A program made the position numbers and the translations under genes. Under the pieces are notes generated by a model. It ran no database searches. It had not been told where the DNA came from and saw only the letters and a program-made list of their open reading frames with translations. A stretch of DNA of 46,308 nucleotides from the NCBI GenBank assembly GCA_002269645.1, contig NIVC01004430.1, forward strand, positions 1 through 46,308. The letters run 5' to 3'. Positions 4,720-44,369 of the stretch are shown one piece after another. The stretch's first letter is position 1; each line of letters starts with the position of its first letter. The DNA is from Macrostomum lignano. Taxonomy: Eukaryota.

Positions 4720-5350
4720 CCCATCGCATCTAAACTGATGTCATCCAGTCTGATCAAATCTAATTTGATCCCATTTCATTCTATCCTATCTAATCCTATC
4801 CCATCTAATCGGATCCATCCAATCTGATCCCATCTAATCTGATCTTTTTCCCATCAAATCTGATCCCATCTAATCTGATCTTTTTCCCATCAAATCTGAT
4901 CCCATCTAACCCGATCCCATCTAACCTTATCCCATCTAATCTGATCCCATCTAATCTGATCCCATCTAATCTGATCCCATCTCATCTGATCCCATCCAAT
5001 CTGATATCATCTAACCCAAACCCATCTAACCCGATCCCATCTAATCTGATCCCATCTCATCTGATCCCATCTAAACCGAACCCATCTAACCCGAACCCAT
5101 CTAATCTGATCCCATCCAACCCGATCCCATCTAACCCGATCCCATCTAACCCGATCCCATCTAACCCGATCCCATCTAATCTGATCCCATCTAACCCGAT
5201 CCCATCTAATCTGATCCTATCTCATCTGATCCCATCTAAACCGAACCCATCTAACCCGATCCCATCTAATCTGATCCCATCTCATCTGATCCCATTTAAC
5301 CCGAACCCATCTAACCCGATCTCATCTAATCTGATCCCATCTAATGATCC
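4720..5350. repeat. 15-bp minisatellite (CCCATCTAATCTGAT variants) in ZNF622 intron
   Basis: Direct tandem repeats of CCCATCTAA(T/C)C(T/C)GAT. Confidence 0.95.
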
Positions 5351-5386
5351 CAATCCGCACTCAATCCCAACCCTGATGCTGCTCAC

Positions 5387-5925
5387 CCCCAGACTGCTAT
5401 AGTCGTAGAAGTCGGCAAGATCAAAGGCGTGCTCCCCGGCCAGGTTATACCGACAGTGGCCCTTGTCCAGCATGTGGCTGCGCACCGCTCGCACGCTGTC
5501 AAATCGTCTGGCCCCGTGGCACCAGAGGCACTCGCGCCCGACGCCAACTTTATAATCTAGCAGAGTGATGAGGCCCTCCAGGTCGGACAGCAGGTCCGGG
5601 TCGGGGAGAGCGAACCCGTGCTCGCGCAGCATGTGCGCGCAGTTGGCCTCCAGGCTGGCGGCCACATTCGGGCAGAACAGGCACTCCTCCTGGCCGAGTG
5701 GAGACTCGCCATCGAGTTCGCCCGAGTCTGAGTCAGAGTCGCCGTCAACGCTGAGCCAATCGGGCGAGTCGGAGCGGCCAGGCGTCTCGCGCTGCTCCAG
5801 CTGCTCGGCTTCGCGCTGCTTGTGCTTCTTCGAAGCAACGTGATTTTCGAAAGCTTTAGCGCTGGAGAATTTCTTGTGACAGGCGGAGCAGTAGGGCTGC
5901 GGATTAGCGGGCATGGGGATTGGGG
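5387..5925 (-). CDS. ZNF622: ZNF622/Rei1, middle exon with C2H2 zinc fingers
   Basis: YCSACHKKFSSAKAFENHVASKKH; ECLFC...NCAHMLREHGF; VGRECLWC...AVRSHMLDKGHC...DFYDYS. Phase-0 GTGAGC donor at 5386; ttcag acceptor at 5926-5927. Confidence 0.92.
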
Positions 5926-6198
5926 CTGAAGGACAAAGTGCACAATTCCAGGAGGACAGACTAAGTCTATTCGATAAAATTAAAATGCCAATCGAAAGTT
6001 TTTTTATTATGACTTTTTAATCATTCGCGAAGCAAGACAATTTACAGGATCTACAGGGGTAAACTTGCTAATGCATCTCTATTATGGTGCCAAGGTACAT
6101 TCAGACCTGGGATTGATTGCGCCTTGGCCGCTATACAACCTGTGTAAAGCTATCCGCATGTGTAACACAAAATGCACATGCATCCTAGAATAGACTGC

Positions 6199-9193: not shown

Positions 9194-11688
9194 GGCCTGA
9201 TCCGACCTTAGTTAGCTTAGCTTATTGGGCAGCCAAAAATATTAGGAGGCCTATAGAAAATTGATTTCGAGAAATTTAAAGGTTAAATCTTAACTACGGT
9301 CTGAGGTGAGGCCTGTCGATTATTTGTCTGGCTGATCCCTTTCGCTTGTAATTTTAAAACCGCATAAGTGTTTACACTGCTGACCAGCCAAGTGCAGGTT
9401 TTAAAAAATATTTTAACAGCAGATATTCTCTCTCTCTGTTTAACAGATTTGATTTGATTTGATTTTAAGAGAACAAACTGCAGGCCTACTACTTTCGAGG
9501 AAAACTTTTAGCGTAAAGCAGTATAAAAAATCTTAAGTTGCAGCTGGTGTTCTCTTTCTCATGCATAGTATTTAAAGCAGAAAACTGTTTTTACAGATTA
9601 TCTTATGTTATAAACTGCTTTTGTCTTTTGCTAAATGCGAACCCATTAATTTTTTTCCAGAAAATTGCATCAATGCATGCATCCTGGATGCAATATTATT
9701 AATGCATTAATGTATATTACAGTTCTGTTGAGATCCAGTTGGAAAAGAAATCAAATTTATTTATTTTATATTTGTTCTGACTAATGGTTAAAATTCATGG
9801 AAAACATTCTTCAAATTTTCAGCCTGATAAACGCTTGTTTCATTTCATATACAAGCAAAAACTGAGCATTTCTGCGCAAACACAAATCATGATGTGATCG
9901 ATCATATTCACTAATTTGTGGGGCCTTAGAAAGTTTTTTATTTTCGGTCCATCAATATTTCAGTTTGCATTCCTGCCGAATTTCATTTCAAGGTCATTGA
10001 AAAAGGTGCTGCTTGCATATGCAACTAGGGAATACAATTAAATCCCTAGATTTGCCAATCACGGACTCGGGATCGGGATATCCCGGACTTCGAAAATCCC
10101 GGGATTCTCGAGATCAGGATATCCTGGACCTTGTCAATCCCGTTAATCTTTGTTGGTGCGATTTCGGTTTACAAAGCCATCTAATCTGATTTTAAAGGGC
10201 TTTCAATAGAACAGAATAAAATATTTTGCAAACCATAGAACTGACGGTGAGCTCTGAATTGGAGTGTGATGTACATGTTCGGCCTACGGGCTGGCGTAAT
10301 AGACGTACTTTTTTACATGCCAGTATCAACTCAGGAAAATCACACTTGATTGTGATGTAATCTGAGGAATGATATAGCTTAATGAACAGAGCTATGGCCC
10401 GAGGTACTGATACCAGGGCAGAAGGGGACCATCATGATTCAGACCTCCACCCTCCCAAGGGCACCCCATTGGAAAATAGGTAGATTTGGTTGTGTGTGGT
10501 CAAATGAAAAAAGTCCAACTGTTCTAATCCCAACTAAGGGTACGGCCAAGGAGTTTTTGAAGGTAGGGACTGCCTTGTAGTTGTGCCACACCCTGTGCTG
10601 GACATCTAAAGGGTGTCCTCACAATGCTGAGAGTGAAGTCTTTCGCATAAGGGGGGCTTCTGATCTGCGCAAGGTCGAGACCACCTGGCAAGCGCTGTGT
10701 GATCGCAAACAATGAGGAATTAAAAAAATTATCATTATACATTAATATGCGAGTACCATATGCACAGAGAACGTTCATTACACCTTAAAATCTCTTTACG
10801 ATCTGCCAGCAGCTTCTGTTTTGCATCCCTGCAGCCCCATAGCCTCCCGGGGCCGGCGGTAAAAGTCACTGACGTCGAAATTCGCCTTTCAAAAACTGGC
10901 GACTACTTCTACTCTCTAGCCTGCATACTTAAAACATTAATAAATTAAAGCAGGACAACTAGGTTATGATTTTCACCTGACAAGTACAGTATCTCAGCTG
11001 CAGATACTACTACTCGAGAATGAATGATTGAATTATGAAGCGGAATCGGGATCCCGATGGTCAATCCCGGGATTTTCGAATCCCGGACTATTGTGATCGG
11101 GCTCTACTCGTATATTTTAAACTATGCCGTTATTTTATATCTTAGCCTATGCGGAACGGAAAGTTAATACGCGTTTTTGCCACTTTTGCACGCGCTAAGA
11201 GATAAGATAAGGTTTCGAGCAGCACGCAGAAAACGCTATAGAATATCAAACACAGCATAATTATTGTGTATTTATTAATTCAAATTACTCATTCTTTTTG
11301 TATGATAAGTGAAGTAAATCCAATCCAAAAACTCTAGCTGTAGCGTCGTTGCCTGACAACAGTCACAACAAACAATAGGAGAGGGAGTGGAATGCCTTTA
11401 ATGCAGCAAAATTAACGTACATACTACATGCGGATACCTGACGTACTTGGCCGAAGTACCTTGTAATCATACTCATAATCATAATGAGTATTTTTAGAAC
11501 TGCAACTGCAAGCGCCATAAACATGCACTGTGAAGTATGCTCGTAAACTGACTTAGATTTTATAATTTCAAGTGGAATAAAAATAGAAATAGCAATAAAC
11601 AAGATATGTTAATAAAAAAGCATAAATAGCAATAAAACAGCAGACTAAATCGCCGATCCGGTAAGTAAAGTCTAGCTGACTCCAGCAG

Positions 11689-12860
11689 ATGGAATCCGAG
11701 CTACACCGCGCCTGCCGCCATCGCCATGAAGACACCGTGAAATCGCTGCTGAAGTCCGGAGCAGACCCGGACACTCGAGACTCATTTGGTCGGACGCCGC
11801 TGTGGGTGGCTAGTCAGCTTGGTTTCGTGGAAGTGATGACGCTACTAATAGATGCTGGGGCTCAGTTGGATTGTCCGCAGACTGATGGAGCAACTCCTCT
11901 GTTTGCAGCGGCTAAGGCAGGAGGCGACGCAGCTGTTGAGAAGCTACTGGAAGCCGGCGCTAATCCGGACCTCCGTTGTCTGGACGGGTCAGGTCCGCTG
12001 CTGATCGCGGTTCAGACAGGACACGTTGACGTTGTTCGGTGCCTGCTAGCGGCCGGAGCTGACGTCGACTTGAGGAGAAACGATCTCTCGTCGCCGCTGC
12101 TAATCTTGGCTCAATATGGACAACACAGCGTGCTAGAGATTCTGCTGCGGGCGGGACCTGATCTTCACTTGCCTAACAGAAATGGTTCGTGCCCGCTCTA
12201 CGCGGCTTGCTGGTTCGGCTACACCTCTGTCGTTGAAAGGCTGCACCTGGCTGGAGCAGAGGTGAACCACTGGAACAGCATCGGATTCACACCTCTGCAC
12301 AAGGCCGCTGAGAACGGGCATCTTGATCTGGTTCAGTTTCTAATTAAAATCGACGCCCAAGTCGATGCCCTCAGCAACACAGGTGCAGCACCGCTTCACC
12401 TGGCCGCCGAGAACGGGCACGCAAGCATAATCCAAGTTCTGCTTCAAGCCCGTGCATCGGTAAATGCACAGGATGAGGCTGGAGATTCGGCCATTCACCG
12501 TGCTGCAAGGCGGGGCCATAAAGATGCGCTCAGAGTGCTGCTGATGGCCGGGGCCGATGTGAACTTGGAAAACAATGTAGGGAACACTCCACTTACTGTG
12601 GCGGCTGGGCACTGTACTCAGCCTGAGGTATTGAGCCTGCTACTTTCCGACGCTTCTGTGAACTACATTGAAGCGGCGTTGTCGGCCTCTCTTTTCTACG
12701 GTCTCTCCGGCAACGCCCTGCAATTCTTAAGCGTCCTGCACGTTGATGCAAAGGCACTGAGACGGATTGTGCCAAAGTCGTGCATGCAACTGGCAACTAG
12801 CTGCTTGCATCGAGCCACAAAGAGAAACTCGAGTTTCAACCATTCTTCGATTTTGACAAG
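11689..12860 (+). CDS. Ankyrin-repeat exon (~10 repeats); probably the N-terminal half of an ANK-cGLR protein
   Basis: Repeated G-x-T/S-PL-H/F-x-AA...G-x-x-x-V/I-x-x-LL-x-AGA-x-V-N/D units. The ORF ends at AAG|GTATT (donor at 12861, phase 2). Confidence 0.9.
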
Positions 12861-13268
12861 GTATTAAAAAGGACACGGTCCTCTGGAATAGTAAGAGGGT
12901 ATAATTTAGTTATAGCTTGAGTAATTCGTAGTAAGAATTTGAATAAGTATGAATGAGTAGTGAGTATTTGAACAGGGGTCGGCAAGAGTAGCTCACTCTC
13001 GATTCTTGCGCCAGACCCACTGGTTGATTCCGTGCAATATTTATTTGGGGCTTGTGTGCACAACAATTGGCGGGAGGTTGGCGTGCAACTCACATCCATC
13101 CATGAGGGCCAAACCCAAGGCCAAGGCGTGTGTACGACTGTGTGTTTGCGTACAGTATTCGCGTGCTTGTATGTGCTCAAAGCAGAATGGGCAGCGGACG
13201 CTGCCCGGTGTTCCATGGTGCTCACAACCCAAATTACTATTACATACGAGTTATTTCAATCATTATAG

Positions 13269-15168
13269 AGCCAAAATTTCGGATGATCATCAGTTTAGTC
13301 AACTGCTATTTGAGTCTCTTTGCTGCTCGGGCTTTACAAGAGACGGCTCCGTCACTCAACAGGCGCAGGCAGATGTTCTACAACAAATAGTTCGGAAATT
13401 AAAGCCCAATACCTGTATAAATGTAGTTGGCAGCTACAGCGAGGGTTGGGGAAGCTCTCTAACAAGTCTGGACGGTGGCATTGACGAAGATTCCGACATA
13501 GACTATACGGAGATTCTGCCAGTTGAGCTGCATCTTGTTGGCTACTGCCAGTGCCCGGCGCCTGATTCCGAGAAACTATTGACGTACGAAGGCGGCTACG
13601 CTCGGTTTCGGGCTGCTAGTAAGCTCATCCACAATCAGCTTTTTTATCGTATAATGTCCTGTTTATCCTGTACTGTTGTACCCAGACGTTTTAAAAAGCA
13701 ATTACATTTCATATTCTGGCAATTTCTCTGTCTTTCAGCTGCGAACCCCAGCAATCCTCAGTTGCGAACGCTGCAATCGCCAGCTATGGATTACGTGAAT
13801 TCAGTGAGGGCTTGTTGCTATCCAGACATAGACGTGCTGACACCTGGTCGAGCCACTCACATTCCAAAGGACATGCTTGAAGCGCTACGAAACGAAGTAC
13901 TTCAAGCCAAGGCCCGTCAAGCATCACCGGCTCATTCTGTTCATAAGCCTGCGTCCCCGTGCCACCTGGTCAGAGCGGCGCCTCCGGACAGAGAGGGTGA
14001 ATGGCTGAGACTCAGCACAACATTTTTGGAGAGGCTGATGATTCGCGGCTTCAGCACGCTGCAGGGTCAACTATTCGTTATACTGAAGTTTATCATCAAG
14101 CGACACCTGTCCAAGACAGTGAGCGGGCTCAAGACTTACGTCGCGAAGACTTTAATGTTTCGCATGATACACGAGAGTCCAGCTGAGGAATGGCACCCAT
14201 CAAATCTGCTGCAACTGATCAAGAAGGCTTTGGGAATTCTGCTCGCTGGTCTGCAGCAGGGGGGAGAGCACGAGTGTCTGCCGCACTTCTTTGCGCCCCA
14301 AGCCGCCGTCTACTTGCGCAAAGGCCACTCGACAAAGCAAGACATATATAAGGCGATAGTTAGCACAACAAACAATCTTCGCCAACCATTGATAACGCTC
14401 ATGGACCAGCTGGTACCTACGAGTCACTCGGACTACCATCAGTTTCACCCATTCACATTGATACCTGTAACCTACGAACTGCAATCGGATTTTAAGATAA
14501 CCAGCTTTCTGGATCTTTATCCAGCGGCTTGGACTCTGCTGCGAGGTTTAGCAAGCGACTCGCATATATCGATGTCGCTTATCAACAGCATACCAGACTT
14601 TGCATTCGCTATGCGAGAAAGTTTTCGAGCGATGGCCCAACTGAAGAATGACAAGCGTGAAGATGCCTTGCACACGCTGAGATTGGCGCTTCACCACAGG
14701 GTCAGCCGAACTGTTGTCAAGAGACAAAAAGAGGCCACTGTGTCGGGCGTTTTTGAGTATTTGGAAAAGAAATTTGTCGCAGTGGATGCAAGCTACAGGT
14801 TCTGCTTTCGTTTCGATAAACGACCCGAGCTGAGTTTTCTCCCAGCTTTGGCTCGAATAAACTTTCCGCAGAAAATGCTTTTTTATGGCAACAGGTTCTT
14901 CATGAACTTTGACACCCTGCTCAAGTGGCTCAGCCTGGAACTCATCCCCAACCAAGCTCAAGGCGAGTCGCAGCGCTGGTTTGAAGAACTGCTGCACGAC
15001 CAGCACATTGACGCTCTCGACTTGGCGATGGCCTTGCAGTTCTGCTCAGACGGTAACATTCTGGCCGCTATTATTCAACGAGAGCGCAGTGTCATCGCTG
15101 CTTTGCCGTCGCTGCGACAGGGCTTGGAGGATTGCAAGCGCCGATTGGTGAGTCACCGAAGCTTCTGA
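13269..15168 (+). CDS. Mab-21/cGAS-like (cGLR) nucleotidyltransferase with helical C-terminal extension; exons 13269-13618 and 13739-15168
   Basis: Pol-beta NTase motif VVGSYSEG...DSDID, third acid in AMDYV. Mab-21 core WLRLSTTFLE...LFVILKFIIK...LKTYVAKTLMF...EEWHPSNLL...CLPHFFAP. Phase-2 acceptor tatag at 13267-13268; internal GTAAGC...TTTCAG intron 13619-13738. Confidence 0.85.
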
Positions 15169-20750: not shown

Positions 20751-22199
20751 TCAATATTCAATAGTGAACCTTGGCGGCTTTCGTTCGGAGTCCAGCAGCG
20801 GCTCGCATGGCCGAATGGCGACCAACTCGATGTGGTCCGGCCTGATGGACTGCCGCTCCAGACGGTCCAGGCCGCCGGCCGCCGTGCGCACTGACGGAAG
20901 GCGGCTCTGTCTGCTTAGCCGCCTGTCGGCGTACACTGGATTGGTGCCACCCAGAACTGCTGGGCCGCCGGACAGGCAGCCAAGCGTCTGGCGAAGCTCC
21001 TGACGAAATCGTTGAGCGGAGGCAACGTAAAGAAAGAAATTAGCCACGTGGCTCAGGTACATAATCATCTCGGCGATAGCTTCGATCAGATAGAAGTTCG
21101 CTATGCTGGCCATGTCTCTCGATCGAGTCAAATCGAATAGGAAAATTGACAGTTTCAGCAGAGCGATGGGCAGAGTGCAGAGCAGGTAGCAGGCGCAAAT
21201 TGTGCTCAGCATCACAGTCACCTGGCGGGCCGATCGGCTGCGCGGCGGCTGATTCGCCTGGTGATTGTTGCGCCAGCCGCTGAGGCAGCGCGGACGCAGC
21301 AGTCTGATCACCATGGCAGCGTTCAGCAGCAGAATAATGCCAAACGGCGTCAACAGGTAGCAGACGGTGTCTAGCCAGTAGACAGTGTAGTCAATGCCAA
21401 GCGAGGGACGCAGGTCGCAGTCGTTGTAGGCGTACTCACGAATCTCTGGGAGCAAGGAACCGTTAGAATCGTCCGCAGCAGCTCTGTGCGTGTAGTTGAT
21501 TAGCTTTGGCTGCAGCGCCACGGTCCACATCCAGTGCGAGTTGAGCACCAGGTCGGCGAGGCAGATGACCAACGCCGTGGCTCGAATCCTCATACCGCTG
21601 TCGGTGCTCGTGCTGGCTCGCAACGGAAATACGACGGCGTAGAAGCGCTCAATTGTCATGGCAACAATTAACCACACGGACGCGTAACTAAAGGAGAACT
21701 GCAAGTAGGAAGTGAGCTTGCAGCCAAACTCGCTGATTGTTTCTATTCGAATGCCGAACATCTCCTTGAGCCACTTCCAGAGCAGAGCGGTGGAAAGAAC
21801 TAACTGGTCGGTGATGGCAATGAGGATGAGGTACAGGTACACCGGGACAGTCTTGGAGTGCCGCCGCAGCACCGCCAGGCCCAGCAGGTTTCCAACGGTG
21901 CCCACCGTCAGCAGGACTGGCGGGACGGCGCACTTCACCAGCTTGCTCAGTCTGTAGGCCCTGTAACGGTCGTACATGGCCTTCTCGTAGGGAAAAATGT
22001 GCATCTCGCCGTTTTTTGCCGGGCTATAGGCGACCAAAGTGATTGACAGAGCGGCCGAACTCTGTGTGCAGCTGGAGACGGATAGAAGTATGCTGGATTC
22101 TTGTGGGGGGGGGGGGAATCGAAGGCAACTCGCTATTGAGCTATTCGCCCCGATCCTCTGTGCCTCATCGCTTGGATGAAGCTCAGCAGCCAATGGCAT
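20751..22199 (-). CDS. Intronless class A (rhodopsin-like) GPCR, neuropeptide/FMRFamide-receptor-like; true start may be the Met at 22004
   Basis: Seven hydrophobic segments: TM1 GTVGNLL, TM2 IAITDQLVL, CKLTSY, TM3 MTIERFYAVVFPL, TM6 YLLCTLP, TM7 ANFFLY followed by FRQEL. Confidence 0.92.
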   Translation of the reverse strand: MPLAAELHPSDEAQRIGANSSIASCLRFPPPPQESSILLSVSSCTQSSAALSITLVAYSPAKNGEMHIFPYEKAMYDRYRAYRLSKLVKCAVPPVLLTVGTVGNLLGLAVLRRHSKTVPVYLYLILIAITDQLVLSTALLWKWLKEMFGIRIETISEFGCKLTSYLQFSFSYASVWLIVAMTIERFYAVVFPLRASTSTDSGMRIRATALVICLADLVLNSHWMWTVALQPKLINYTHRAAADDSNGSLLPEIREYAYNDCDLRPSLGIDYTVYWLDTVCYLLTPFGIILLLNAAMVIRLLRPRCLSGWRNNHQANQPPRSRSARQVTVMLSTICACYLLCTLPIALLKLSIFLFDLTRSRDMASIANFYLIEAIAEMIMYLSHVANFFLYVASAQRFRQELRQTLGCLSGGPAVLGGTNPVYADRRLSRQSRLPSVRTAAGGLDRLERQSIRPDHIELVAIRPCEPLLDSERKPPRFTIEY

Positions 22200-25100
22200 G
22201 GAGGCGCATCAAGCGTTCGGAAGAAATGTTTTTCTATACAGCTGAAAATTGCCGGTGCAGATAGACATACAGGGCGATTACATTAATTTCGGATTTACTC
22301 GAATACTCGTTAGCATGCAGCATTACCGATTGGTTTTGGGTCAGTGCCGAAGATTTCAAAAAAATGTCTAAGGAAGGAAGTAAGCGCAATTTTCTAACAA
22401 TGACCACTGTATTATCTCTGCTTGCAATGCAATAACAAATAAATAATAGTGTGTTTCTTCAAGCCGAGTGTCATTTTCCTGGCAAGGACTACTGATCAAG
22501 TAGAAGTACGTATTTTAGGAGGCAGTTTTTAAAGAAAAAATACACTACTTTTCAGCACAAAAATAGTTATTGCCTTTGATAAAAAGCAGACCCAATGTTC
22601 ATATTTTGATATGTCTCGCCTTTCTTATATCAGATAGCTCTATTGATTTTATAAATCATTCTTAGCTTAATGACTGGTGTAAAAATGTGCAACAGAATTA
22701 TAAAAATCGATTCATAAAACCAATGAGTCGAGCTGTGCCATTCTTACGACTTTTAGGCACAGCATGCACGGGAAATCGTAGGTAGGATATAAAATACGAA
22801 AGCCTATTATTGAGGTAGGACTAAAAAGTGAACTTTGTATTCGGTGGAATTATCCAAACGGCAGTCAGAATTGTATAAAAACCTGATATTATAGCTCAGC
22901 GATCAATCATGCATACGAGAATACTGATAGGGATCTGCAGCCGATTCCTGTGAGACCCACAGAGGAAGAGGAAATCAGTAACTTCCATCTAACAGTCGTC
23001 GCCGCCATTCCACGAACTTCCTTTTCTTGTGTCCGACCGCGATCGAAACCGTGCATTTATAGTCGGGAAGAATTCGGGCGAACTTGAATTCAATCAGATT
23101 GCGGATTCGTATCTTAGTCGTCGCCATGGCAACTAAGCTCAACAGACTCAGAGTGCAGCGCGTTCTGACACATGGATTCTGAGATTGCTTAGGTCTCGAT
23201 AAGATCTGATTGCAGACATCAAATTGCAGTGAATGAGATTCTGCACTTCCGATCTCTGCCACTGTGAATATGGGTTCGGAGAGTCAGCCAGGCGTTCGCT
23301 AATCACAAAATTAGCGACATCAGATTGTGGCTGCATGCTGCAAATCAGTTTGACTCAGACAGCAGAGCTCAGGGAATATCATGCACACGTATATTGCAAT
23401 ACATGTATCTATAAAGTCCTGTGGTCGTCTGCAATACGCACAGCCCAGAACTAGTCATTTGAGGCAGAAACATCTTTATAAATAGACTCTCTTTCTCCCA
23501 CATCCTGGCCTTAGCTGCAGACCATGCCAGGACGCCATCTAGTTCTCTAATTATCTTCGATTCACTGACCCGACCCTTAATTGCAGTCGATGTGTGCAAG
23601 GTCTCACAAGGTCTCAAATTTTCCTGTTTTTTGCGATGTCCGTATCGGCATTTGCCAAATACGGCTCAAGTCCTGCTCTCTTTTTCTTTTTGCAATCCAA
23701 TTGCGTTGCGTCTATTTGCCTTTTATTGCAGTTCCGAAATCCCGGGATTGGGCCCGAATCCCGGGATAAACAAATTTTTGTTCTTTTACAAAGTGTTGTA
23801 AAATTAACATATTGGGCCCCAAACTACGAAGTAGTTAAAATAATTATACTGCGCTCATTTCCGTTAATCACCTCGCGTCGCGTGGCGTCTAATTAAACCC
23901 GCGAGTGTGCAGAAAACAAAAAGTGTTGTCAGAATTTTCGTTTTCATTTTTTCAAATTACCTTATGGATAAACTTAGTATTGGCAAATTGTCTTTAAAAA
24001 TACATTAAAATAATTCTATTTAACAAGATAAAAGTTGGAGCTGACTATAACAGATCGTCTAAGGACTACCGGAATTGTAGCGCGCAAGAGCTAGAGATGG
24101 ACGACACACGTTTTGTTGAAGGAACACATTTTACACAAGGATGAATTATTGCCTTTGGATCCAAGGATTGAACATTATTTTTTCAACATATGAACATAGA
24201 TTAAATTATGGGTGTTGTGTATTAAGAGGTGCCTGGAAAGTCGAATGTCAAAAGATATCATGGATTAAATTAGTGTAGATAATTCCATATAGCTCGTACA
24301 GGTACATGTACATGTATGCATGAAGTGATTGATTGATCTTAATTAAAATTGATTTTATTCATCACACAATCGCTCTGCTGTACATAGTACGATCGTGTCC
24401 GTGAAAATTTAGTCTGCTGGCTTAATTGGGTTTATTAGTATGGGACATCATATTGTCATTAGTTCGGATCAAGTCGGGCTCGCCAATTTACATATGTAAT
24501 TCGCTCGAGCGAATAAATATTGTTAGAAATTTTAAGAAGTAGTAAGCAAAAATGGATGATCGAGTTCATTTGCCACAAATTAGCTTTATGTACATGTAAG
24601 CTGTGCATGCAATTTATACTCGTACATGTAGTCCAGACCAGCAATGCAATTAAAGAGACGTGTAGCGCTATCATCGAACTCGTTGCCACAAGCAAGACCG
24701 CTAACCGCAGATCCTAAAAAATAACTACATTTACAGACGAGGCATATATACTTATTAGTAAAACAGGTTTTTACTTTCAGTTCAGTAGCAAAGAATGTAT
24801 AAGCTATTATATAAAATAAAGGCAGCTGAAATGACTTCGAGAGTTTAGAAGTTTTAGAGTTTAGAAGCCCAAGCTTGCAGGCGTAAACAACTTGCTATAA
24901 TTGGTTCAGCAATATGTACAGTAGCCACGTCCCCTGAAATTTACATTGCAGTTTTAGGCTGGAATTCCGAGAAAAAAGTTGGGGCGGGTGGGGTGTGTGA
25001 AAGGCGGGGGTCGGAGGGTCAATAGCTGCATGGGGGTACAGTATACATAAGAGCCAATAAATGATCAGCCTTGGCTGTAAATTAAGAGGCTTGGCTTTTA

Positions 25101-30940: not shown

Positions 30941-31086
30941 ACTGAGAAGAAACTGTCATTCTGACTCATTTAGACTACAGATACATTAAATTTTTTTATC
31001 CTCTACTGCCTTCGTCCCGCTCAGTAGAAAAGCGCGCAAATTGTAACTATTATTTAACTCACATTTAAAAACGCCCCTCCCCTAAG

Positions 31087-32418
31087 GTCGCCGGCGCCGC
31101 CACGCCTGGAGACGCCAGGGCGGCCAGTCTGGACCGCTCGGCGCTACCGCCGCCGCAGCCGAAGCCAAAACCGAAGCCCAAACTGAAGCCGGGCTCCTCT
31201 AGCGCCGACGCCGACGAAGCACCTAGAGTTGTCGACGCTGCCGAGGCCGGCGGCGGAGTCCGGCGCCACTCGGACGAAGACGCCGATCCCGGGGCCGGCG
31301 GCGGCGGCACTGACCAGTCTGGGCGCGGCAGCGGCGGCGGCTGGGCCCACTTCTCGGACGTCGACTCGGACACTGGCCTCATCAGCGGCTCGGCCGCTGG
31401 CCGCGAGCCTTTGGCCGGCTCGACCGCTGCCGCAGCATCCACTGGCGGCCGCGGCGCCTCTCGCCGACGTCATCGTCGGGCCGCCTCGTCGTCCTCGGCA
31501 GAAGGCGGCGTCGGGGGATCCAAAAACGACGACGGCGACGATGTCGATGATGACGATTCGACGTCGGATTCGGACGACTCCGACAGCCAGGCTGGCGACG
31601 CGCCCGACGACCGGCACAAGTACGTTGAGGGCAACGGCGGCGGCGCTGGCGGCTTCGAGGATGAAGAGGACAGCTCGGATCCGCTGGCCATGACCCGCGA
31701 GCAGCGCGAGTACTACGCCAACCAATTCCTCACCCTGTGCCCCAGCCTCACCGGCCGCATCACCGGCCCAGTGGCCAAGCAGTTCTTTGAGAAGTCCCGC
31801 CTGCCCCCGCCCGAGCTGTCCCGCATCTGGGCCCTGTCCGATCGCGACATGGACGGCCAGCTCAACCTGGCCGAGTTCTCCACCGCGATGCACCTGGTCG
31901 TGCTGAGGCGCAACAATGTGCCGATACCCGACAGGCTGCCCCCTGTTGCTGCCGGCTACGAGCCGCTGTCCGACCAGGACGAGGCTTCGCCGCCTCCGAC
32001 GATGCCGCCGCCACCGCCAATTCACCAGCAGCAGCCGCCGCCGGAGCCGTCAGTCTTTGGCGGAATTCCTCCAACCGGTGTTGGCGTGCTTCATCCGACC
32101 CCTAGGAAACCGACAGCGCATCAGCAGCAGCATCTCCTGCAACAGCACGCCGACCCGTCCGCTCCGACTGTGCCGCCACGAGCTGCCAGCTATCAGCTGG
32201 CGTCCTCCGCTGCTGCCGCCGCCGCTGCTGCCGACGCCGCCGCTGTTGCCTCCGGCCAGCCGCCCAATCGGGAACGCCTGCTAGCGGCGGTGAAGGCTCA
32301 GAAAGAGAAGAATCACACCCTGGTTAGGCTCAACAATGAACTGGCTGTCGAGCTCAAGGAGGTCACCGAGCAAAGGATTGCCTTGGAATTGGAGTTGGAA
32401 CGGCTGAAACCGCTTTAA
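31087..32418 (+). CDS. REPS1: RalBP1-associated EH-domain protein (REPS1/REPS2-POB1-like), terminal exon
   Basis: cctaag acceptor; frame open from 31087. EH domain DPLAMTREQREYYANQF...AKQFFEKSRLP...IWALSDRDMDGQLNLAEFSTAMHLVV and C-terminal coiled coil KEKNHTLVRLNNELAVELKEVTEQRIALELELERLKPL, both matching REPS family motifs. Confidence 0.9.
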   Translation, partial: VAGAATPGDARAASLDRSALPPPQPKPKPKPKLKPGSSSADADEAPRVVDAAEAGGGVRRHSDEDADPGAGGGGTDQSGRGSGGGWAHFSDVDSDTGLISGSAAGREPLAGSTAAAASTGGRGASRRRHRRAASSSSAEGGVGGSKNDDGDDVDDDDSTSDSDDSDSQAGDAPDDRHKYVEGNGGGAGGFEDEEDSSDPLAMTREQREYYANQFLTLCPSLTGRITGPVAKQFFEKSRLPPPELSRIWALSDRDMDGQLNLAEFSTAMHLVVLRRNNVPIPDRLPPVAAGYEPLSDQDEASPPPTMPPPPPIHQQQPPPEPSVFGGIPPTGVGVLHPTPRKPTAHQQQHLLQQHADPSAPTVPPRAASYQLASSAAAAAAAADAAAVASGQPPNRERLLAAVKAQKEKNHTLVRLNNELAVELKEVTEQRIALELELERLKPL

Positions 32419-35149: not shown

Positions 35150-35942
35150 ACATCCCAAGACAGCAAGCATCCCCCAGCTGATAGCAAGCATGCCGCAGAT
35201 AACAAGTATCTCCCAGATAGCAAGCACCGCCCTCCAAGAGTAAGCAACCGCATATCATCCCCTGATAACAAGCACCCCCCCAGATAGCAAGCATCCCCTG
35301 ATAGCAAGCATTCCCAAGATAGCAAGCATTCCCCAGATAGCAAGCATCCCTGATAACAAGCACCCCCCCCCCCAGATAGCAAGCATTCCCCAGATAGCAA
35401 GCATCCCCCAGATAGCAAGCATCCCCTGATAGCAAGCATCCCCTGATAGCAAGCATTCCCAAGATAGCAAGCATTCCCCAGATAGCAAGCATCCCTGATA
35501 ACAAGCACCCCCCCCCCAGATAGCAAGCATTCCCCAGATAGCAAGCATCCCGCAGATAACAAGTATCTCCCAGATAGCAAGCACCGCCCTCCAAGAGTAA
35601 GCAACCGCATATCATCCCCTGATAACAAGCATCCCCCAGATAGCAAGCATCCCCCAGATAGCATCCCCCAGATAGCAAGCATCCCCTGATAACAAGCATC
35701 CCCCAGATAGCAAGCATCCCCCAGATAGCATCCCCCAGATAGCAAGCATCCCCTGATAACAAGCATCCCCAGACAGCAAGCATCCCCCAGACAGCAAGCA
35801 TCCCCCAGATAGCAAGCATCCCCTGATAGCAAGCATCCCCCCTGATAGCAAGCATCCCCCAGATAGCTAGCATCCCCCAGATAGCATCCCCCAGATAGCA
35901 AGCATCCCCCAGATAGCAAGCATCCCCCAGATAGCAAGCATC
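35150..35942. repeat. ~18-bp minisatellite, left part of the array split by the pPolB element
   Basis: Unit GATAGCAAGCATCCCCCA, with a ~357-bp higher-order duplication (cagataacaagtatctcc at ~35196 and ~35553). Confidence 0.93.
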
Positions 35943-36675
35943 ACTACGTAATGCGCAGATAGAGCAGGGTTTTCAGGCAGATTTGACGCAAAAAACGCAA
36001 ATTATACTACTATCTGAAAATGAAGTAAGTAGTATACAAAAACGCTATCCTAAGCGTGATGTGGCAATATGTAGTTGTAATAATCCATGTGCTCATATTA
36101 ATACCATGTACATTAATCCCTATCTATCTCAAATTGTACATTAATTCCATGTACATTAATCCCTATCCCAAATTGTCTATCCCCAATTCTATATGTACAT
36201 GTGCATTAATCTACAGTGTCATCCCCAGCGCGCGCGCACCAACATTACATGTACAATGCTACATGTACACAGAGGCGAGAATTACTAATCTCATCTACTA
36301 CCAAATGAGTCAACTAACCGTGTAGCGTACATCATGTATAAGTATTTACAATGAAGATATATTTACATTTAATCAGTAGCATATTACAGGAAATAATTTA
36401 TGTACAGCATTACCAGCAAATAGAATATACAGAAAATTTTACATTGTTTTTCATTAATTTTCTTTTCATAAATAATTTTAAACAAGTTTGACACGCAAAA
36501 TATGTACAATAGATTTTTACATTGGCAATTTCGCTGCATACAATACAAAAATGCTTTATGTACATTTGTATAGTAGTATGTAACTCTTCATTAATTTAAC
36601 ATGCAAAATATGTACAACAATAAATAGATTTTACTCAGTCAAATTTAACAAGATATTTATTAAGCAAGGGCCACA

Positions 36676-39511
36676 TTATTTATAACCATAAGGCCTGCTG
36701 CAGGCCCCGTACACGCGCTTCGTCAGGACGCGCTGAAACGTCTTGTCCATATTGATTGTGTGTATGGTACAAGACGCCTTGTCGCGCCTAAACTGAAGCT
36801 GCGGCAGCTGCAGGGAGCCGCCGTGTAGTAGGGCACTGCGCAATTCATCGCTGCGCTCCCGAATCTCCGGAGTCAGGCGGATGCCCTTGCACTTCAGGAC
36901 CTGACTCCGGGCACCGGCCGCATCCTCGACAATGTAAGTGTAGAGTTTGGGCCCCCCACTTACAAAGTCGGTCATCCGGCTGCCTGCGGGCACCTCATCG
37001 GTCCACATTCCGAGGCTCGTGCCATGGGGCGGCTCCCATTGGCCCTCGGAATGCCGGTAAACGACCCTGTGTGGGAGAGAAAACGAGATAATTGCTAACT
37101 ATTTACATGTAATCAATTCTAAAATAATTTTCCCAATGCAATACTTACGAGTCAGTGTCGCAGTAAATGGCCCGTTCGCCGAGCCCCTCCAATGCCTCAT
37201 ACAGGCGCAGCCGGGCCTGAGTGGTCGTAAAGACCCCGATTGGCACATTGGAGTACCGGAACGGCCGCTGATTAAAATAGCGGTGCCGGTACTCTAGCAG
37301 CATAAACTCGCTGCCAATCGGTTCGCAGGCCTTGACTTTGAGGTTGGGGTCGGTCAGCCGGGCGAGCCAGTCCTCGTAGCTGGATACAATTTCTGTCGAT
37401 GTCAGGTCATCACGCTGACAAAATTTGCCCCAGAGCCTGTGTGTTGTGAAAAGAAGTGCTACTGTTAGTAGAAGAAGAAAATCATTTAAAATACAAAAAT
37501 TTATGAATACTTACGAATTCAAAAAGATTTTCGCTACAAAGCGAAGTCCTGGGTTGGGCTCGACCTTGTCCAGCGTGACGCCCTCCTTGGCGTAAAAATC
37601 GGCAATGTAGGCGGCCTTGTCTTCATCCGACATGCCGGGGGAACCGCTCGACTCAGCCTTCAGCTTGAGAAAGGTGCTGACATAGTCACTGAACAGACCG
37701 GTCCGCTTCTCTGTCCAGTAGGCCAGCGCGTGCACCGCCTGCAGCCGGTAGCCCAACTGGAAGGCCTTCCGCAGCTCCGGCGTTGCCCAGGTACCAGTCA
37801 GTGCCCGCTGCTGGTCAGAGTGGTCGCAGCACTCGCCGCACTGCTGCTCCATACAGGTGCGGCAAAGCCCAAAAAAGAGCTTCTTTTGCACCCTGTAGGG
37901 CAGCAGCGGAATGTGCAAATCTGACGGCGGCAGCACTGTCACCTTGGCAATGCCAAAGTAGCTAGCCAGCGCGTCAGAATCGAGCACTTGCGGCGTCGGA
38001 TGTTGCACCGGGTGGCCAATCGGGTATGGGTCTTTCGACTGCACCGTCGGGTACAGAGAGACCTGCCAGTTGAAATAAAGCATTATTTTTTTTTCATAAA
38101 CTGTATTTTTTGCAAAATATTCTACTATATTAGTAGTATCGCTACTCACCACATCCCGATATTTGAGAGTCTCAGTCTCGCTGGCCACAGCATGCGGGAT
38201 AAAGCACTCTACGCGGCCACCGTAGAGCGCATCCTCCATCTTGAGCGGAGCGCGCAGATGTGCAGTTGCGGCGATAAAGTCGGCCTGCGACGCCAATACA
38301 GTGTCGTACTCATGCTCCCAAATGACTCGAACACTGTAATTGTGCCGCTCCAACTCGCGAGTGAACCACTCAGTCTCGTGGCGAATATGGCTCAGAGGCT
38401 GCCGTTTGAGCGGGTGGACGACATCCTGATCGGGCATACACTGCTCGCAGCCATGGTAGAAACAGCCATGAAACTGCAAAACAGTGTTGCTCGCCTCATC
38501 GAAGCCGTCCACCTTGCGGCCGAGAATGACAGCCTCGCCGCCAGTCGAGTCGCAGGTTCGCAGCCGCCCGCCAAATTCGGTGGCATTCAAATAGGCCAGC
38601 CACTTGCGCGCCTTGAACGACTGCTGGTCGGCCTGCCGGGCAATCACGCCGACCGAGTTGGGCTCCATAAACCGGGTGGTGAAAACGGCCATTGCCAAAC
38701 TGGCAATCGTATTGGCCTGAACAAATGGTTCCAGGCCGTCGCAAATTTCACCAATTATTGCCCTGTACTTGATGCAGCCCTCGCGAAGCAGGACTGTGTC
38801 GCTCAAACAATAATCGAGATATTCCCGATTAAAGTTGAACAACTCGCCCTGTCGCGAGGCTAGCCAAGCACAGATTGAGTCATAGTCCTTGTTCGCTTTG
38901 CCGCCATAATATTCAATAGCCGGGTAGGGGCCAACGTAGTTCCAATTAGCCGGCTTGTTAAACTCGTGGGGAAAGGTCCCCTTGGCCAGCTTTGTGTTAG
39001 CGAGCCCCAGAGCTTTGGGGAATTGCGCAAGCGGGATTGGTATAAAATTTAATGAATCTTTAAATACCAATTTATCCACCGTCATGCTCATTAGCCGGCT
39101 GCCCTGGAACAGTACTTGTGGCCGCTTCTTGGCCAGGCCGTTGAGTAGAGCGCCAAGCAGTAGGAACGAATCGTAGCCTGATGCATTGTGCGCTACAACA
39201 ATGGCGCCGCCTCGGAAAGCTGTGCTCAGCCAGGTGAAAAACGCATTCAGCGAGGCCGGGCCCACAGCCACAAAATCGGCCATTTGGCAGGCGCAGTCTG
39301 AGTGGCTGACGCAATTGGAGAATTCCTCCCCCAGATCGCGGCCAGTCAGACAATTGGCGGCGCTATGCAGGCCATTGCAGAGGCGGCAAGTCTCGCGCGG
39401 AAACGCCCGGCCGGAGCAGGTCTCGCAGCACGTGACGGCAGTCACCAGGTGCACGTGATGCTGCTTCTCCTCGTCCGTGTATGTTTCCGTATCGTAGAAC
39501 ACGTACGGCAT
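36676..39511 (-). CDS. Protein-primed family B DNA polymerase (Polinton type), 4 exons: 39511-38150, 38062-37515, 37436-37149, 37066-36676 (862 aa from the Met at 39511)
   Basis: ExoI FYDTET, ExoII HNASGYD, ExoIII YCLSD, Vsr-like insert (KVDGFD...QFHGCFYHGC...VIWEHE). After splicing: DV|VSLYP, KIFLNS|LWGKF, YCDTDS|VVY, GGPKLY, KCKGI, C-terminal RPYGYK*. Exon sum 2589 nt is divisible by 3. Confidence 0.93.
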
Positions 39512-39603
39512 AGTCGAAGCTTTCACTTTGGGAGCCTTGACGGAGCACAAATGCGGGCATGTCAAGTGCCCACTGTGTAAACAGTACGACGAGGCCGGCT
39601 CGC

Positions 39604-41170
39604 AGATGGAGGATGCGCTCTACGGTGGCCGCGTAGAGTGCTTTATCCCGCATGCTGTGGCCAGCGAGACTGAGACTCTCAAATATCGGGATGTGGTGAG
39701 TAGCGATACTACTAATATAGTAGAATATTTTGCAAAAAATACAGTTTATGAAAAAAAAATAATGCTTTATTTCAACTGGCAGGTCTCTCTGTACCCGACG
39801 GTGCAGTCGAAAGACCCATACCCGATTGGCCACCCGGTGCAACATCCGACGCCGCAAGTGCTCGATTCTGACGCGCTGGCTAGCTACTTTGGCATTGCCA
39901 AGGTGACAGTGCTGCCGCCGTCAGATTTGCACATTCCGCTGCTGCCCTACAGGGTGCAAAAGAAGCTCTTTTTTGGGCTTTGCCGCACCTGTATGGAGCA
40001 GCAGTGCGGCGAGTGCTGCGACCACTCTGACCAGCAGCGGGCACTGACTGGTACCTGGGCAACGCCGGAGCTGCGGAAGGCCTTCCAGTTGGGCTACCGG
40101 CTGCAGGCGGTGCACGCGCTGGCCTACTGGACAGAGAAGCGGACCGGTCTGTTCAGTGACTATGTCAGCACCTTTCTCAAGCTGAAGGCTGAGTCGAGCG
40201 GTTCCCCCGGCATGTCGGATGAAGACAAGGCCGCCTACATTGCCGATTTTTACGCCAAGGAGGGCGTCACGCTGGACAAGGTCGAGCCCAACCCAGGACT
40301 TCGCTTTGTAGCGAAAATCTTTTTGAATTCGTAAGTATTCATAAATTTTTGTATTTTAAATGATTTTCTTCTTCTACTAACAGTAGCACTTCTTTTCACA
40401 ACACACAGGCTCTGGGGCAAATTTTGTCAGCGTGATGACCTGACATCGACAGAAATTGTATCCAGCTACGAGGACTGGCTCGCCCGGCTGACCGACCCCA
40501 ACCTCAAAGTCAAGGCCTGCGAACCGATTGGCAGCGAGTTTATGCTGCTAGAGTACCGGCACCGCTATTTTAATCAGCGGCCGTTCCGGTACTCCAATGT
40601 GCCAATCGGGGTCTTTACGACCACTCAGGCCCGGCTGCGCCTGTATGAGGCATTGGAGGGGCTCGGCGAACGGGCCATTTACTGCGACACTGACTCGTAA
40701 GTATTGCATTGGGAAAATTATTTTAGAATTGATTACATGTAAATAGTTAGCAATTATCTCGTTTTCTCTCCCACACAGGGTCGTTTACCGGCATTCCGAG
40801 GGCCAATGGGAGCCGCCCCATGGCACGAGCCTCGGAATGTGGACCGATGAGGTGCCCGCAGGCAGCCGGATGACCGACTTTGTAAGTGGGGGGGCCCAAA
40901 CTCTACACTTACATTGTCGAGGATGCGGCCGGTGCCCGGAGTCAGGTCCTGAAGTGCAAGGGCATCCGCCTGACTCCGGAGATTCGGGAGCGCAGCGATG
41001 AATTGCGCAGTGCCCTACTACACGGCGGCTCCCTGCAGCTGCCGCAGCTTCAGTTTAGGCGCGACAAGGCGTCTTGTACCATACACACAATCAATATGGA
41101 CAAGACGTTTCAGCGCGTCCTGACGAAGCGCGTGTACGGGGCCTGCAGCAGGCCTTATGGTTATAAATAA
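39604..41170 (+). pseudogene. Inverted duplicate of the pPolB C-terminal half (same three introns; extra G at ~40888-40894 breaks the frame)
   Basis: MEDALYGGRVE...RPYGYK* identical to the left copy where translations are given. G7 here versus C6 at 36952-36957. Confidence 0.88.
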
Positions 41171-41903
41171 TGTGGCCCTTGCTTAATAAATATCTTGTTA
41201 AATTTGACTGAGTAAAATCTATTTATTGTTGTACATATTTTGCATGTTAAATTAATGAAGAGTTACATACTACTATACAAATGTACATAAAGCATTTTTG
41301 TATTGTATGCAGCGAAATTGCCAATGTAAAAATCTATTGTACATATTTTGCGTGTCAAACTTGTTTAAAATTATTTATGAAAAGAAAATTAATGAAAAAC
41401 AATGTAAAATTTTCTGTATATTCTATTTGCTGGTAATGCTGTACATAAATTATTTCCTGTAATATGCTACTGATTAAATGTAAATATATCTTCATTGTAA
41501 ATACTTATACATGATGTACGCTACACGGTTAGTTGACTCATTTGGTAGTAGATGAGATTAGTAATTCTCGCCTCTGTGTACATGTAGCATTGTACATGTA
41601 ATGTTGGTGCGCGCGCGCTGGGGATGACACTGTAGATTAATGCACATGTACATATAGAATTGGGGATAGACAATTTGGGATAGGGATTAATGTACATGGA
41701 ATTAATGTACAATTTGAGATAGATAGGGATTAATGTACATGGTATTAATATGAGCACATGGATTATTACAACTACATATTGCCACATCACGCTTAGGATA
41801 GCGTTTTTGTATACTACTTACTTCATTTTCAGATAGTAGTATAATTTGCGTTTTTTGCGTCAAATCTGCCTGAAAACCCTGCTCTATCTGCGCATTACGT
41901 AGT

Positions 41904-42210
41904 AGCATCCCCCCAGATAGCATCCCCAGATAACAAGCATCCCCAGATAGCAAGCATCCCCCCAGATAGCATCCCCCAGATAGCAAGCATCCCCTGATAA
42001 CAAGCATCCCCCAGACAGCAAGCATCCCCCAGACAGCAAGCATCCCCCAGATAGCAAGCATCCCCTGATAGCAAGCATCCCCCAGACAGCAAGCATCCCC
42101 CAGACAGCAAGCATCCCCCAGATAGCAAGCATCCCCTGATAGCAAGCATCCCGGCCCCTGATAGCAAGCATCCCCCCTGATAGCAAGCATCCCCCCAGAT
42201 AGCAAGCATC
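41904..42210. repeat. ~18-bp minisatellite, right part of the split array
   Basis: Same GATAGCAAGCATCCCCCA unit and same orientation as 35150-35942. Confidence 0.93.

Positions 42211-43959: not shown

Positions 43960-44369
<410 letters not shown>

Follow-up and report, generated by a model that had tools for sequence, protein, structure and literature searches.

The 46,308-nt contig NIVC01004430.1 of the flatworm Macrostomum lignano (here called the window, at its full length) carries a gene for a protein-primed DNA polymerase (pPolB) of the Polinton type whose coding region is broken by three gaps, and the locus raises the question of what these gaps are, what kind of element carries the gene, and how intervening sequences come to lie in the catalytic motifs of a polymerase. 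Three GT-AG, AT-rich introns had been proposed by the initial annotation, and all three are found where it placed them, on the minus strand (Table 1). In the established nomenclature of family B polymerases the interrupted sites are motifs A, B and C, and the exon at 38150..39558 (minus strand) presumably contains a VSR-like insert.

Table 1. Features of the polymerase gene and of the insertion that carries it, in window coordinates
Feature	Position	Strand	Remarks
Left 6-bp target-site duplication	35937..35942	+	AGCATC, within minisatellite
Fold-back (palindromic) derivative of ~10-kb polymerase-only Polinton-like element	35943..41903	.	5,961 bp, ends ACTACGT...ACGTAGT
Palindrome left arm	35943..38241	+	starts with family terminal repeat, ~310-350 bp
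Final pPolB exon	36676..37066	-	includes stop codon
Intron 3	37148-37067	-	82 nt, GTAAGT..CAG, phase 2, GC 0.30, motif C Ser codon
pPolB exon, motif B to motif C	37149..37436	-	
Intron 2	37514-37437	-	78 nt, GTAAGT..CAG, phase 2, GC 0.27, motif B Ser codon
pPolB exon, motif A to motif B	37515..38062	-	
Intron 1	38149-38063	-	87 nt, GTGAGT..CAG, phase 0, GC 0.26, polymerase motif A
5'-truncated pPolB exon	38150..39558	-	exonuclease motifs, start of motif A
Fold-back junction	39541..39604	+	inverted short parent segment at imperfect ~14-bp inverted repeat, then ~1.3-kb jump
Right arm, mirror of pPolB 3' half	39604..41903	+	one 1-nt indel relative to left arm
Mirrored introns in right arm	39696-39782, 40331-40408, 40697-40778		computed from mirror symmetry
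Right 6-bp target-site duplication	41904..41909	+	AGCATC

The composition of the gaps sets them apart from the coding sequence, with a GC content of 0.26-0.30 against 0.56-0.60 in the pPolB exons, and none of 2328 exonic 80-nt windows matches the introns in AT-richness. Features of U2-type introns are present, namely GT..AG ends, a pyrimidine-rich 3' end and exact removal in contigs that are probably RNA, and intron 2 has a branch-point-like CTAAC at -32. As had been claimed, introns 2 and 3 each bring an immediate stop if unspliced, and intron 1 can be read through in the window copy. When the three junctions were checked in contigs from probable RNA runs, as had been proposed, the introns proved to be skipped exactly. 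Contigs from runs X1, X5 and X6 skip precisely the 82 nt of intron 3 in the window, and those from X5 and X6 the 87 and 78 nt of introns 1 and 2, with CT..AC ends throughout; in a full-length copy, 85, 74 and 89 nt are skipped with GT..AG ends, all three in X2 and X6 and intron 3 also in X10. These five runs belong to four studies and their RNA status is a guess, splice joints having been examined in seven distinct runs among 24 listed, none of which is on record as RNA. Run contigs carry no tissue, level or strand, and their joints show presence, not absence; X14 and X17, from one study whose kind is not on record, cover 30 of 30 bins with no such splice joints. Because the spliced contigs differ in letters from the window copy, their source is sister copies, and in X1 and X5 they lie beside contigs that contain the introns. 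We regard the gaps in the window as almost certainly genuine spliceosomal introns.

The copy in the window is a relic, both truncated and folded back. Its introns are mirrored in the right arm, as the initial annotation had stated, the arms being 2300 nt long and 99.96% identical with one indel. From its terminus to 39558 the copy tracks a 9.6-kb parent (C1485), after which a short segment is copied backwards at an imperfect inverted repeat and a ~1.3-kb jump leads into the mirror arm; the parent arrangement at the junction is seen in contig X14-16, and no contig spanning the fold-back junction was seen in the seven runs. The identical junction occurs on C3085, and C2786 has the same insertion with a further deletion; since the flanks are collinear in both, the window palindrome is one real insertion. 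Missing from it are about the first 450 codons of pPolB and the upstream region, roughly the 5' third of the gene, so that the window copy is unable to give a full polymerase. Transcription through 35943-41903, if it occurs, would turn the 3' half of the polymerase into a 2.3-kb hairpin, from which small RNAs against the family might arise. A flank reading CACTAC invites assignment to CACTA/EnSpm, which is ruled out because the initial C is part of the 6-bp duplication.

Elsewhere the window holds ordinary host genes, including a C2H2 zinc-finger exon (5282-6016, minus strand), a rhodopsin-family GPCR ORF (20751-22208, minus), an EH-domain exon (31069-32418, plus) and a core histone ORF (43974-44369, plus). 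An ankyrin-repeat ORF and, directly after it, one encoding a Mab-21 C-terminal domain (11680-12867 and 12964-15168, plus) may be parts of a single ankyrin/cGAS-like gene that a short intron or a frameshift has divided, and the contig ends (45473-46308) in short repeats, inverted and tandem, that are perhaps another transposon terminus.

The introns are shared by related copies throughout the genome. A DNA search gave 44 matches from the 40 scored among 121 candidates, and a search with the exons returned 126, which fall into family A (86-100%) and family B (about 70%) and of which none has an open frame longer than 873 aa. Every assessable intron is kept in the 30 family-A loci, a set that includes the window's two arms and near-duplicates, at lengths of 69-89 nt; GT donors are found at 27/27, 29/30 and 28/30 sites for introns 1, 2 and 3, and AG acceptors at 25/27, 30/30 and 30/30. 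Family B has introns at the identical three sites in all six copies. The proposed search of related pPolB genes for conserved intron positions is thereby answered, with three sites common to both families, and since the intron sequences of the two families are unrelated the introns must be old. The count of three, correct for the 5'-truncated window copy, does not hold for the gene, which in its full-length form has six introns at matching sites in families A and B. The three additional 5' introns measure ~0.75-1.2 kb, ~70 nt and ~60 nt in family A, the last being longer in the family-B copy C491; the first two are each spliced in one X2 contig, and the third comes from genomic comparison. No significant similarity was detected among six introns compared (lowest shuffle p 0.013 in 15 pairwise comparisons), and an origin from introners, that is, from multi-copy similar introns, is therefore not supported.

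Judged by patterns of substitution, the pPolB exons are under purifying selection. In the 18 family-A loci that stay when identical and partial ones are omitted from the 30, the median exon dN/dS relative to the window copy is 0.08, and 168 indel events fall in 247 intron nt as against 25 in 1378 other nt, although such events are not independent. The pPolB is assigned to PF03175, with 30-42% identity to its relatives. In the nr protein ALD16274.1 (P0190) each of the three motifs is joined, and its predicted model (mean pLDDT 84) finds its best match in phi29 polymerase (E 2.5e-21). Families A and B group with the metagenomic P0052 at support 1.0 in a midpoint-rooted FastTree tree of 62 rows and 762 columns, built without the genome's four canonical polymerases, which failed to align at E 1e-5. 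The only intronless close relative found in the genome is a decayed, AT-rich copy on C234, with 36-47% identity and contiguous motifs, and pieces of integrase, ATPase and capsid genes lie 14-20 kb from it.

What the introns reside in is best seen from the full-length elements, which are 8.8-10.4 kb long, with terminal repeats, 6-bp duplications and ends of the form ACTAC(G/T)...(C/A)GTAGT. Besides pPolB they carry a low-complexity ORF and, in divergent orientation, a gene for a PC4-like protein, with a dUTPase in some family-A copies; the family-A elements on C1485 and C1300 are without PC4 and dUTPase. Pfam recognizes pPolB, PC4 and dUTPase, PHROGs gave nothing on the elements besides polymerase and dUTPase, and an atlas search with the low-complexity ORF returned no usable match. 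Profiles for the Polinton integrase, ATPase, major and minor capsid proteins and protease produced no match under E 0.3 when run on 10 full-length elements, a search that a very divergent or intron-shredded integrase could escape and that, genome-wide, scores the best candidates only. For the integrase no match lay below E 0.83, and tblastn found none either; for ATPase, capsid and protease the best matches were at E 0.36 and 0.93, the protease profile consisting of five sequences. The same profiles detected both an intact and a decayed control. Duplications of 6 bp flank the elements in the window, on C1485 (two elements) and on C157, C491, C24 and C493, both ends with a 6-bp duplication were found in 17 of 28 further stretches, and the terminal repeats are 99.5-100% identical in two family-B copies. 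The element ends are ACTACG or ACTACT, and the canonical 5'-AGTAGT/AGAGAG motif is absent. The lineage works like a Polinton replicon, but with no integrase or virion genes detected and a different end motif it does not qualify as a Polinton. The earlier description of an intron-bearing Polinton lineage needing host splicing accordingly survives in part: the introns are real and lineage-wide, but the element is not an ordinary Polinton, having no detected integrase, ATPase, capsid or protease and reversed ends.

Derivatives with ACTAC ends range from 247 bp to ~10 kb, and are longer where they contain nested inserts; many are non-coding fold-backs. They cluster at or below ~10 kb (L091-L100, L269-L275), and a size limit, conceivably one of packaging, is possible; a fold-back could reach twice the parent length, and C126, at 14.4 kb, exceeds the limit. 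A 247-bp MITE-like element (L287:455-701, on G000:C1368; also on C4195) has the same ends and a 6-bp duplication. One full-length copy is nested in a non-coding fold-back of its own family (L034-L036, G000:C1485:44228-62496), C157 holds a cluster of nested copies, and P-element-like transposase and LINE insertions are found within ACTAC-ended elements at L093, L105, L044 and L107. The first 30 bp of the termini contain two short variable blocks that mix and match between copies but agree between the two ends within each copy, which is what end-to-end repair in the course of replication would produce.

The canonical Polintons of the same genome are 16.4-17.5 kb long, with intronless polymerases and ends AGTAGT...ACTACT; their polymerases have an endonuclease VII domain and are barely alignable to the intron-bearing pPolB. 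A canonical AGTAGT-ended Polinton also exists in fold-back form (L251-L252, G000:C2301), its integrase and capsid genes repeated in both mirrored arms and a polymerase match absent. For each of two canonical families the integrase search gave over 100 matches, the majority of them free of stops, so that candidate helpers are available. Every integrase-bearing element with a locatable end has AGTAGT ends (five elements, plus 8 of 10 sampled loci, the end at the other two not being located), and none ending in ACTAC was encountered. Because the intron-bearing element yielded neither an integrase nor a capsid gene, its integrase, and its capsid too, are likely borrowed from ordinary Polintons, and the best reading of the element is a helper-dependent, polymerase-only satellite of a putative helper. 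The gene in the window is probably, then, the spliced pPolB of a 9-10 kb Polinton-derived element that likely copies itself by means of its own polymerase and likely borrows its integrase, preserved here in a fold-back copy.

Under this reading an integrated copy would be transcribed in the nucleus and constitutively spliced by the host. The resulting pPolB, together with PC4 as a single-strand DNA-binding helper, would replicate an excised linear copy by protein-primed strand displacement from the terminal repeats, a process that would keep the ends of one copy alike and throw off snap-back palindromes, and would thus account for both the matched ends and the palindromes. Reinsertion would be carried out by a retrovirus-like integrase acting in trans, and use of the reversed end motif by a canonical integrase would be a case of hypothetical cross-recognition. 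Linear pPolB plasmids, transpovirons and satellite or defective-interfering replicons are likewise capsid-less, carry replication genes only and form snap-back palindromes; the flatworm element differs from them in being nuclear, spliced and integrated with 6-bp duplications, with a helper dependence that is presumed.

An end motif unlike that of all canonical helpers found, together with the many ACTAC-ended elements that have no pPolB, would also fit a bipartite system, in which a second ACTAC-ended element supplies the integrase (and capsid) and the present element is the polymerase segment. Yet each pPolB-less ACTAC element fetched is a non-coding fold-back, a product of deletion or a carrier of an unrelated insert, and between the ends of these elements, in a survey of family-A-type ends, no integrase, ATPase or capsid gene was found, and we consider such a division of labour unlikely.

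Slightly less probable again is that splicing acts as a regulated gate, comparable to the regulated splicing of P elements, which limits active polymerase to the germline or stem cells, the motif introns being kept since their retention kills activity. The immediate stops in introns 2 and 3, the occurrence of both intron-containing and spliced contigs in X1 and X5, and the non-random placement in motifs are all in keeping with a gate. However, donor sites conform to a strong consensus in nearly all family-A copies, no conserved retained-intron product exists, the intron-containing contigs may be pre-mRNA or DNA, and any frameshifting intron upstream would do equally well. The germline gating suggested by the initial annotation is unsupported apart from the stops themselves, and it finds no footing in intron 1 either, where a length permitting read-through (a multiple of three) is not conserved, occurring in 15 of 27 family-A loci and two of six family-B copies.

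Intron-split pPolBs recur. In 99 related loci, partly selected on intact motifs, the three motifs are contiguous in 87/87, 95/95 and 89/89 assessable cases. Intron-like insertions were found in five of 39 loci chosen by upstream patterns only (35 and the best 4 of 56), four of the five coming from one bin and lying outside motifs A-C; the fifth, in the decayed copy L322, is a 46-nt, GT-started insertion with a non-canonical acceptor at the same motif-A position. L305, L306, L310, L315 and L322 are intron-bearing pPolB genes of eukaryotic type, contaminants in prokaryotic genome bins. Among outside proteins 24 of 142 end early, seven of them in motif B or C as judged from protein sequences alone, and the tails of several of these read like a donor site. 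A pattern scan of viral contigs for an intron at motif C gave five matches and no polymerase, and P0190 as sole query had no match in viral contigs. The arrangement is less unique than the initial annotation implied: no exception to contiguous motifs appears in 99 selection-biased loci, but intron-like insertions do occur in other pPolBs.

In an alignment of 28 outside relatives the three intron sites rank 42, 29 and 2 of 967 in conservation, all within the top 4.3%, and the probability that at least three of six introns fall at such conserved sites is 6e-4 to 1.5e-3, a post hoc value that concerns six introns only. The three 5' introns and the introns of L305, L306, L310 and L315 lie outside motifs A-C. 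Copying of the positions from host polymerases is ruled out, as motifs A-C of host Pol delta and Pol alpha, and motif C of Pol zeta, are uninterrupted. [quoted passage not shown] Among explanations of the placement we favour, with some reserve, a similar survivor bias for the persistence of the motif introns: a DNA-replicating element would seldom lose an intron precisely via cDNA, and imprecise deletion within a catalytic motif would be lethal.

The same preference has a second possible meaning, improbable in our estimation, namely that the introns shield conserved DNA from the endonucleases of competitors, or have replaced older homing elements such as group I introns and inteins. A concentration of intervening sequences at sites that are highly conserved and tolerate no indels is reported to mark homing elements, spliceosomal introns showing no such preference (PMC2814812); the canonical Polinton polymerases of the genome carry an endonuclease VII domain, and the insertion of the distant L322 shares the motif-A position. 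Unlike inteins and group I introns, however, the flatworm introns are short, GT-AG and without an ORF, and their mutual similarity is not above chance. That the canonical polymerases are barely alignable makes a common nuclease target doubtful, and the relatives that stop at motifs B and C appear to do so at slightly different codons. Hardly credible is a domesticated or dead gene, or an assembly artefact, with introns that post-date the loss of mobility and a palindrome that is a read chimera, for although the window copy is truncated and its fold-back junction is spanned by no examined run contig, dozens of dispersed copies with differing 6-bp duplications, the low dN/dS, the near-identical terminal repeats of two family-B copies, the same junction on C3085 and flanks that are not mirrored all argue against it.

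With Polintons/Mavericks (eupolintoviruses, adintoviruses) the window family shares a protein-primed PolB (PF03175), terminal inverted repeats, a 6-bp duplication, PC4 and a trinucleotide-repeat end motif, and it differs from them in being without detected integrase, ATPase, capsid and protease. Published accounts give Polintons a length of 15-20 kb (PMC5718144), as opposed to 8.8-10.4 kb here, ends of (AGT)2/(ACT)2, (AG)3 or (AC)3A (PMC8097293), as opposed to ACTAC..GTAGT, and a definition that includes a retrovirus-like integrase (PMC5499653). The core genes of intact vertebrate and nematode Mavericks are reported to be intronless (PMC8097293; 10.1101/2022.07.12.499685), where the present gene has six introns, and it is cargo genes, not core genes, that carry introns (10.1101/2022.07.12.499685); group I introns are reported in PLVs (PMC12220804). 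Dinoflagellate eupolintoviruses with introners likewise have spliceosomal-type introns in integrated Polinton-like elements, but those introners are described as young, multi-copy and depleted from coding regions (PMC12166617), whereas the flatworm introns are old, mutually unrelated, fixed in two families and placed in the catalytic motifs of a selected polymerase.

The expectation that ORF-based surveys would miss the element was not borne out, since an 867-aa read-through ORF still matches PF03175 and UniRef already includes automatic spliced gene models among 39 homologues, the top 36 of which are labelled Macrostomum lignano. Surveys that demand a linked integrase are the ones that would drop such elements, and one large survey kept integrase-linked polymerases only (10.1101/2023.08.22.554363). 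Neither the family nor the fixation of spliceosomal introns at pPolB motifs was found described in a literature search that lay mostly outside subscription journals and took in related work such as PMC8502044, PMC4604429, PMC5173321, 10.64898/2026.07.28.741278 and 10.64898/2026.10.13.758929; Repbase or the supplements of papers may already list it.

We tentatively propose, short of calling it probable, that the element represents a class of polymerase-only Polinton satellites, each a selected minimal replisome (pPolB, PC4, dUTPase) that would parasitise resident integrase and perhaps capsids despite the reversed end motif and whose spliceosomal introns would behave like inteins by persisting in the motifs, a pattern that possibly recurs in other Polinton lineages. 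Published descriptions make the core genes of Polintons intronless and tie them invariably to an integrase, and with surveys restricted to integrase-linked polymerases such elements would be screened out as a class. A polymerase that is both selected and spliced points to nuclear transcription and host processing as obligatory steps, and the interruption of motifs A, B and C alike is at odds with the reported absence of conserved-site bias, making the gene a test case for intron survival in DNA-replicating elements. Stem-cell, germline and piRNA data exist for the host, which is a laboratory model, so that the expression and silencing of the family can be read from existing datasets.
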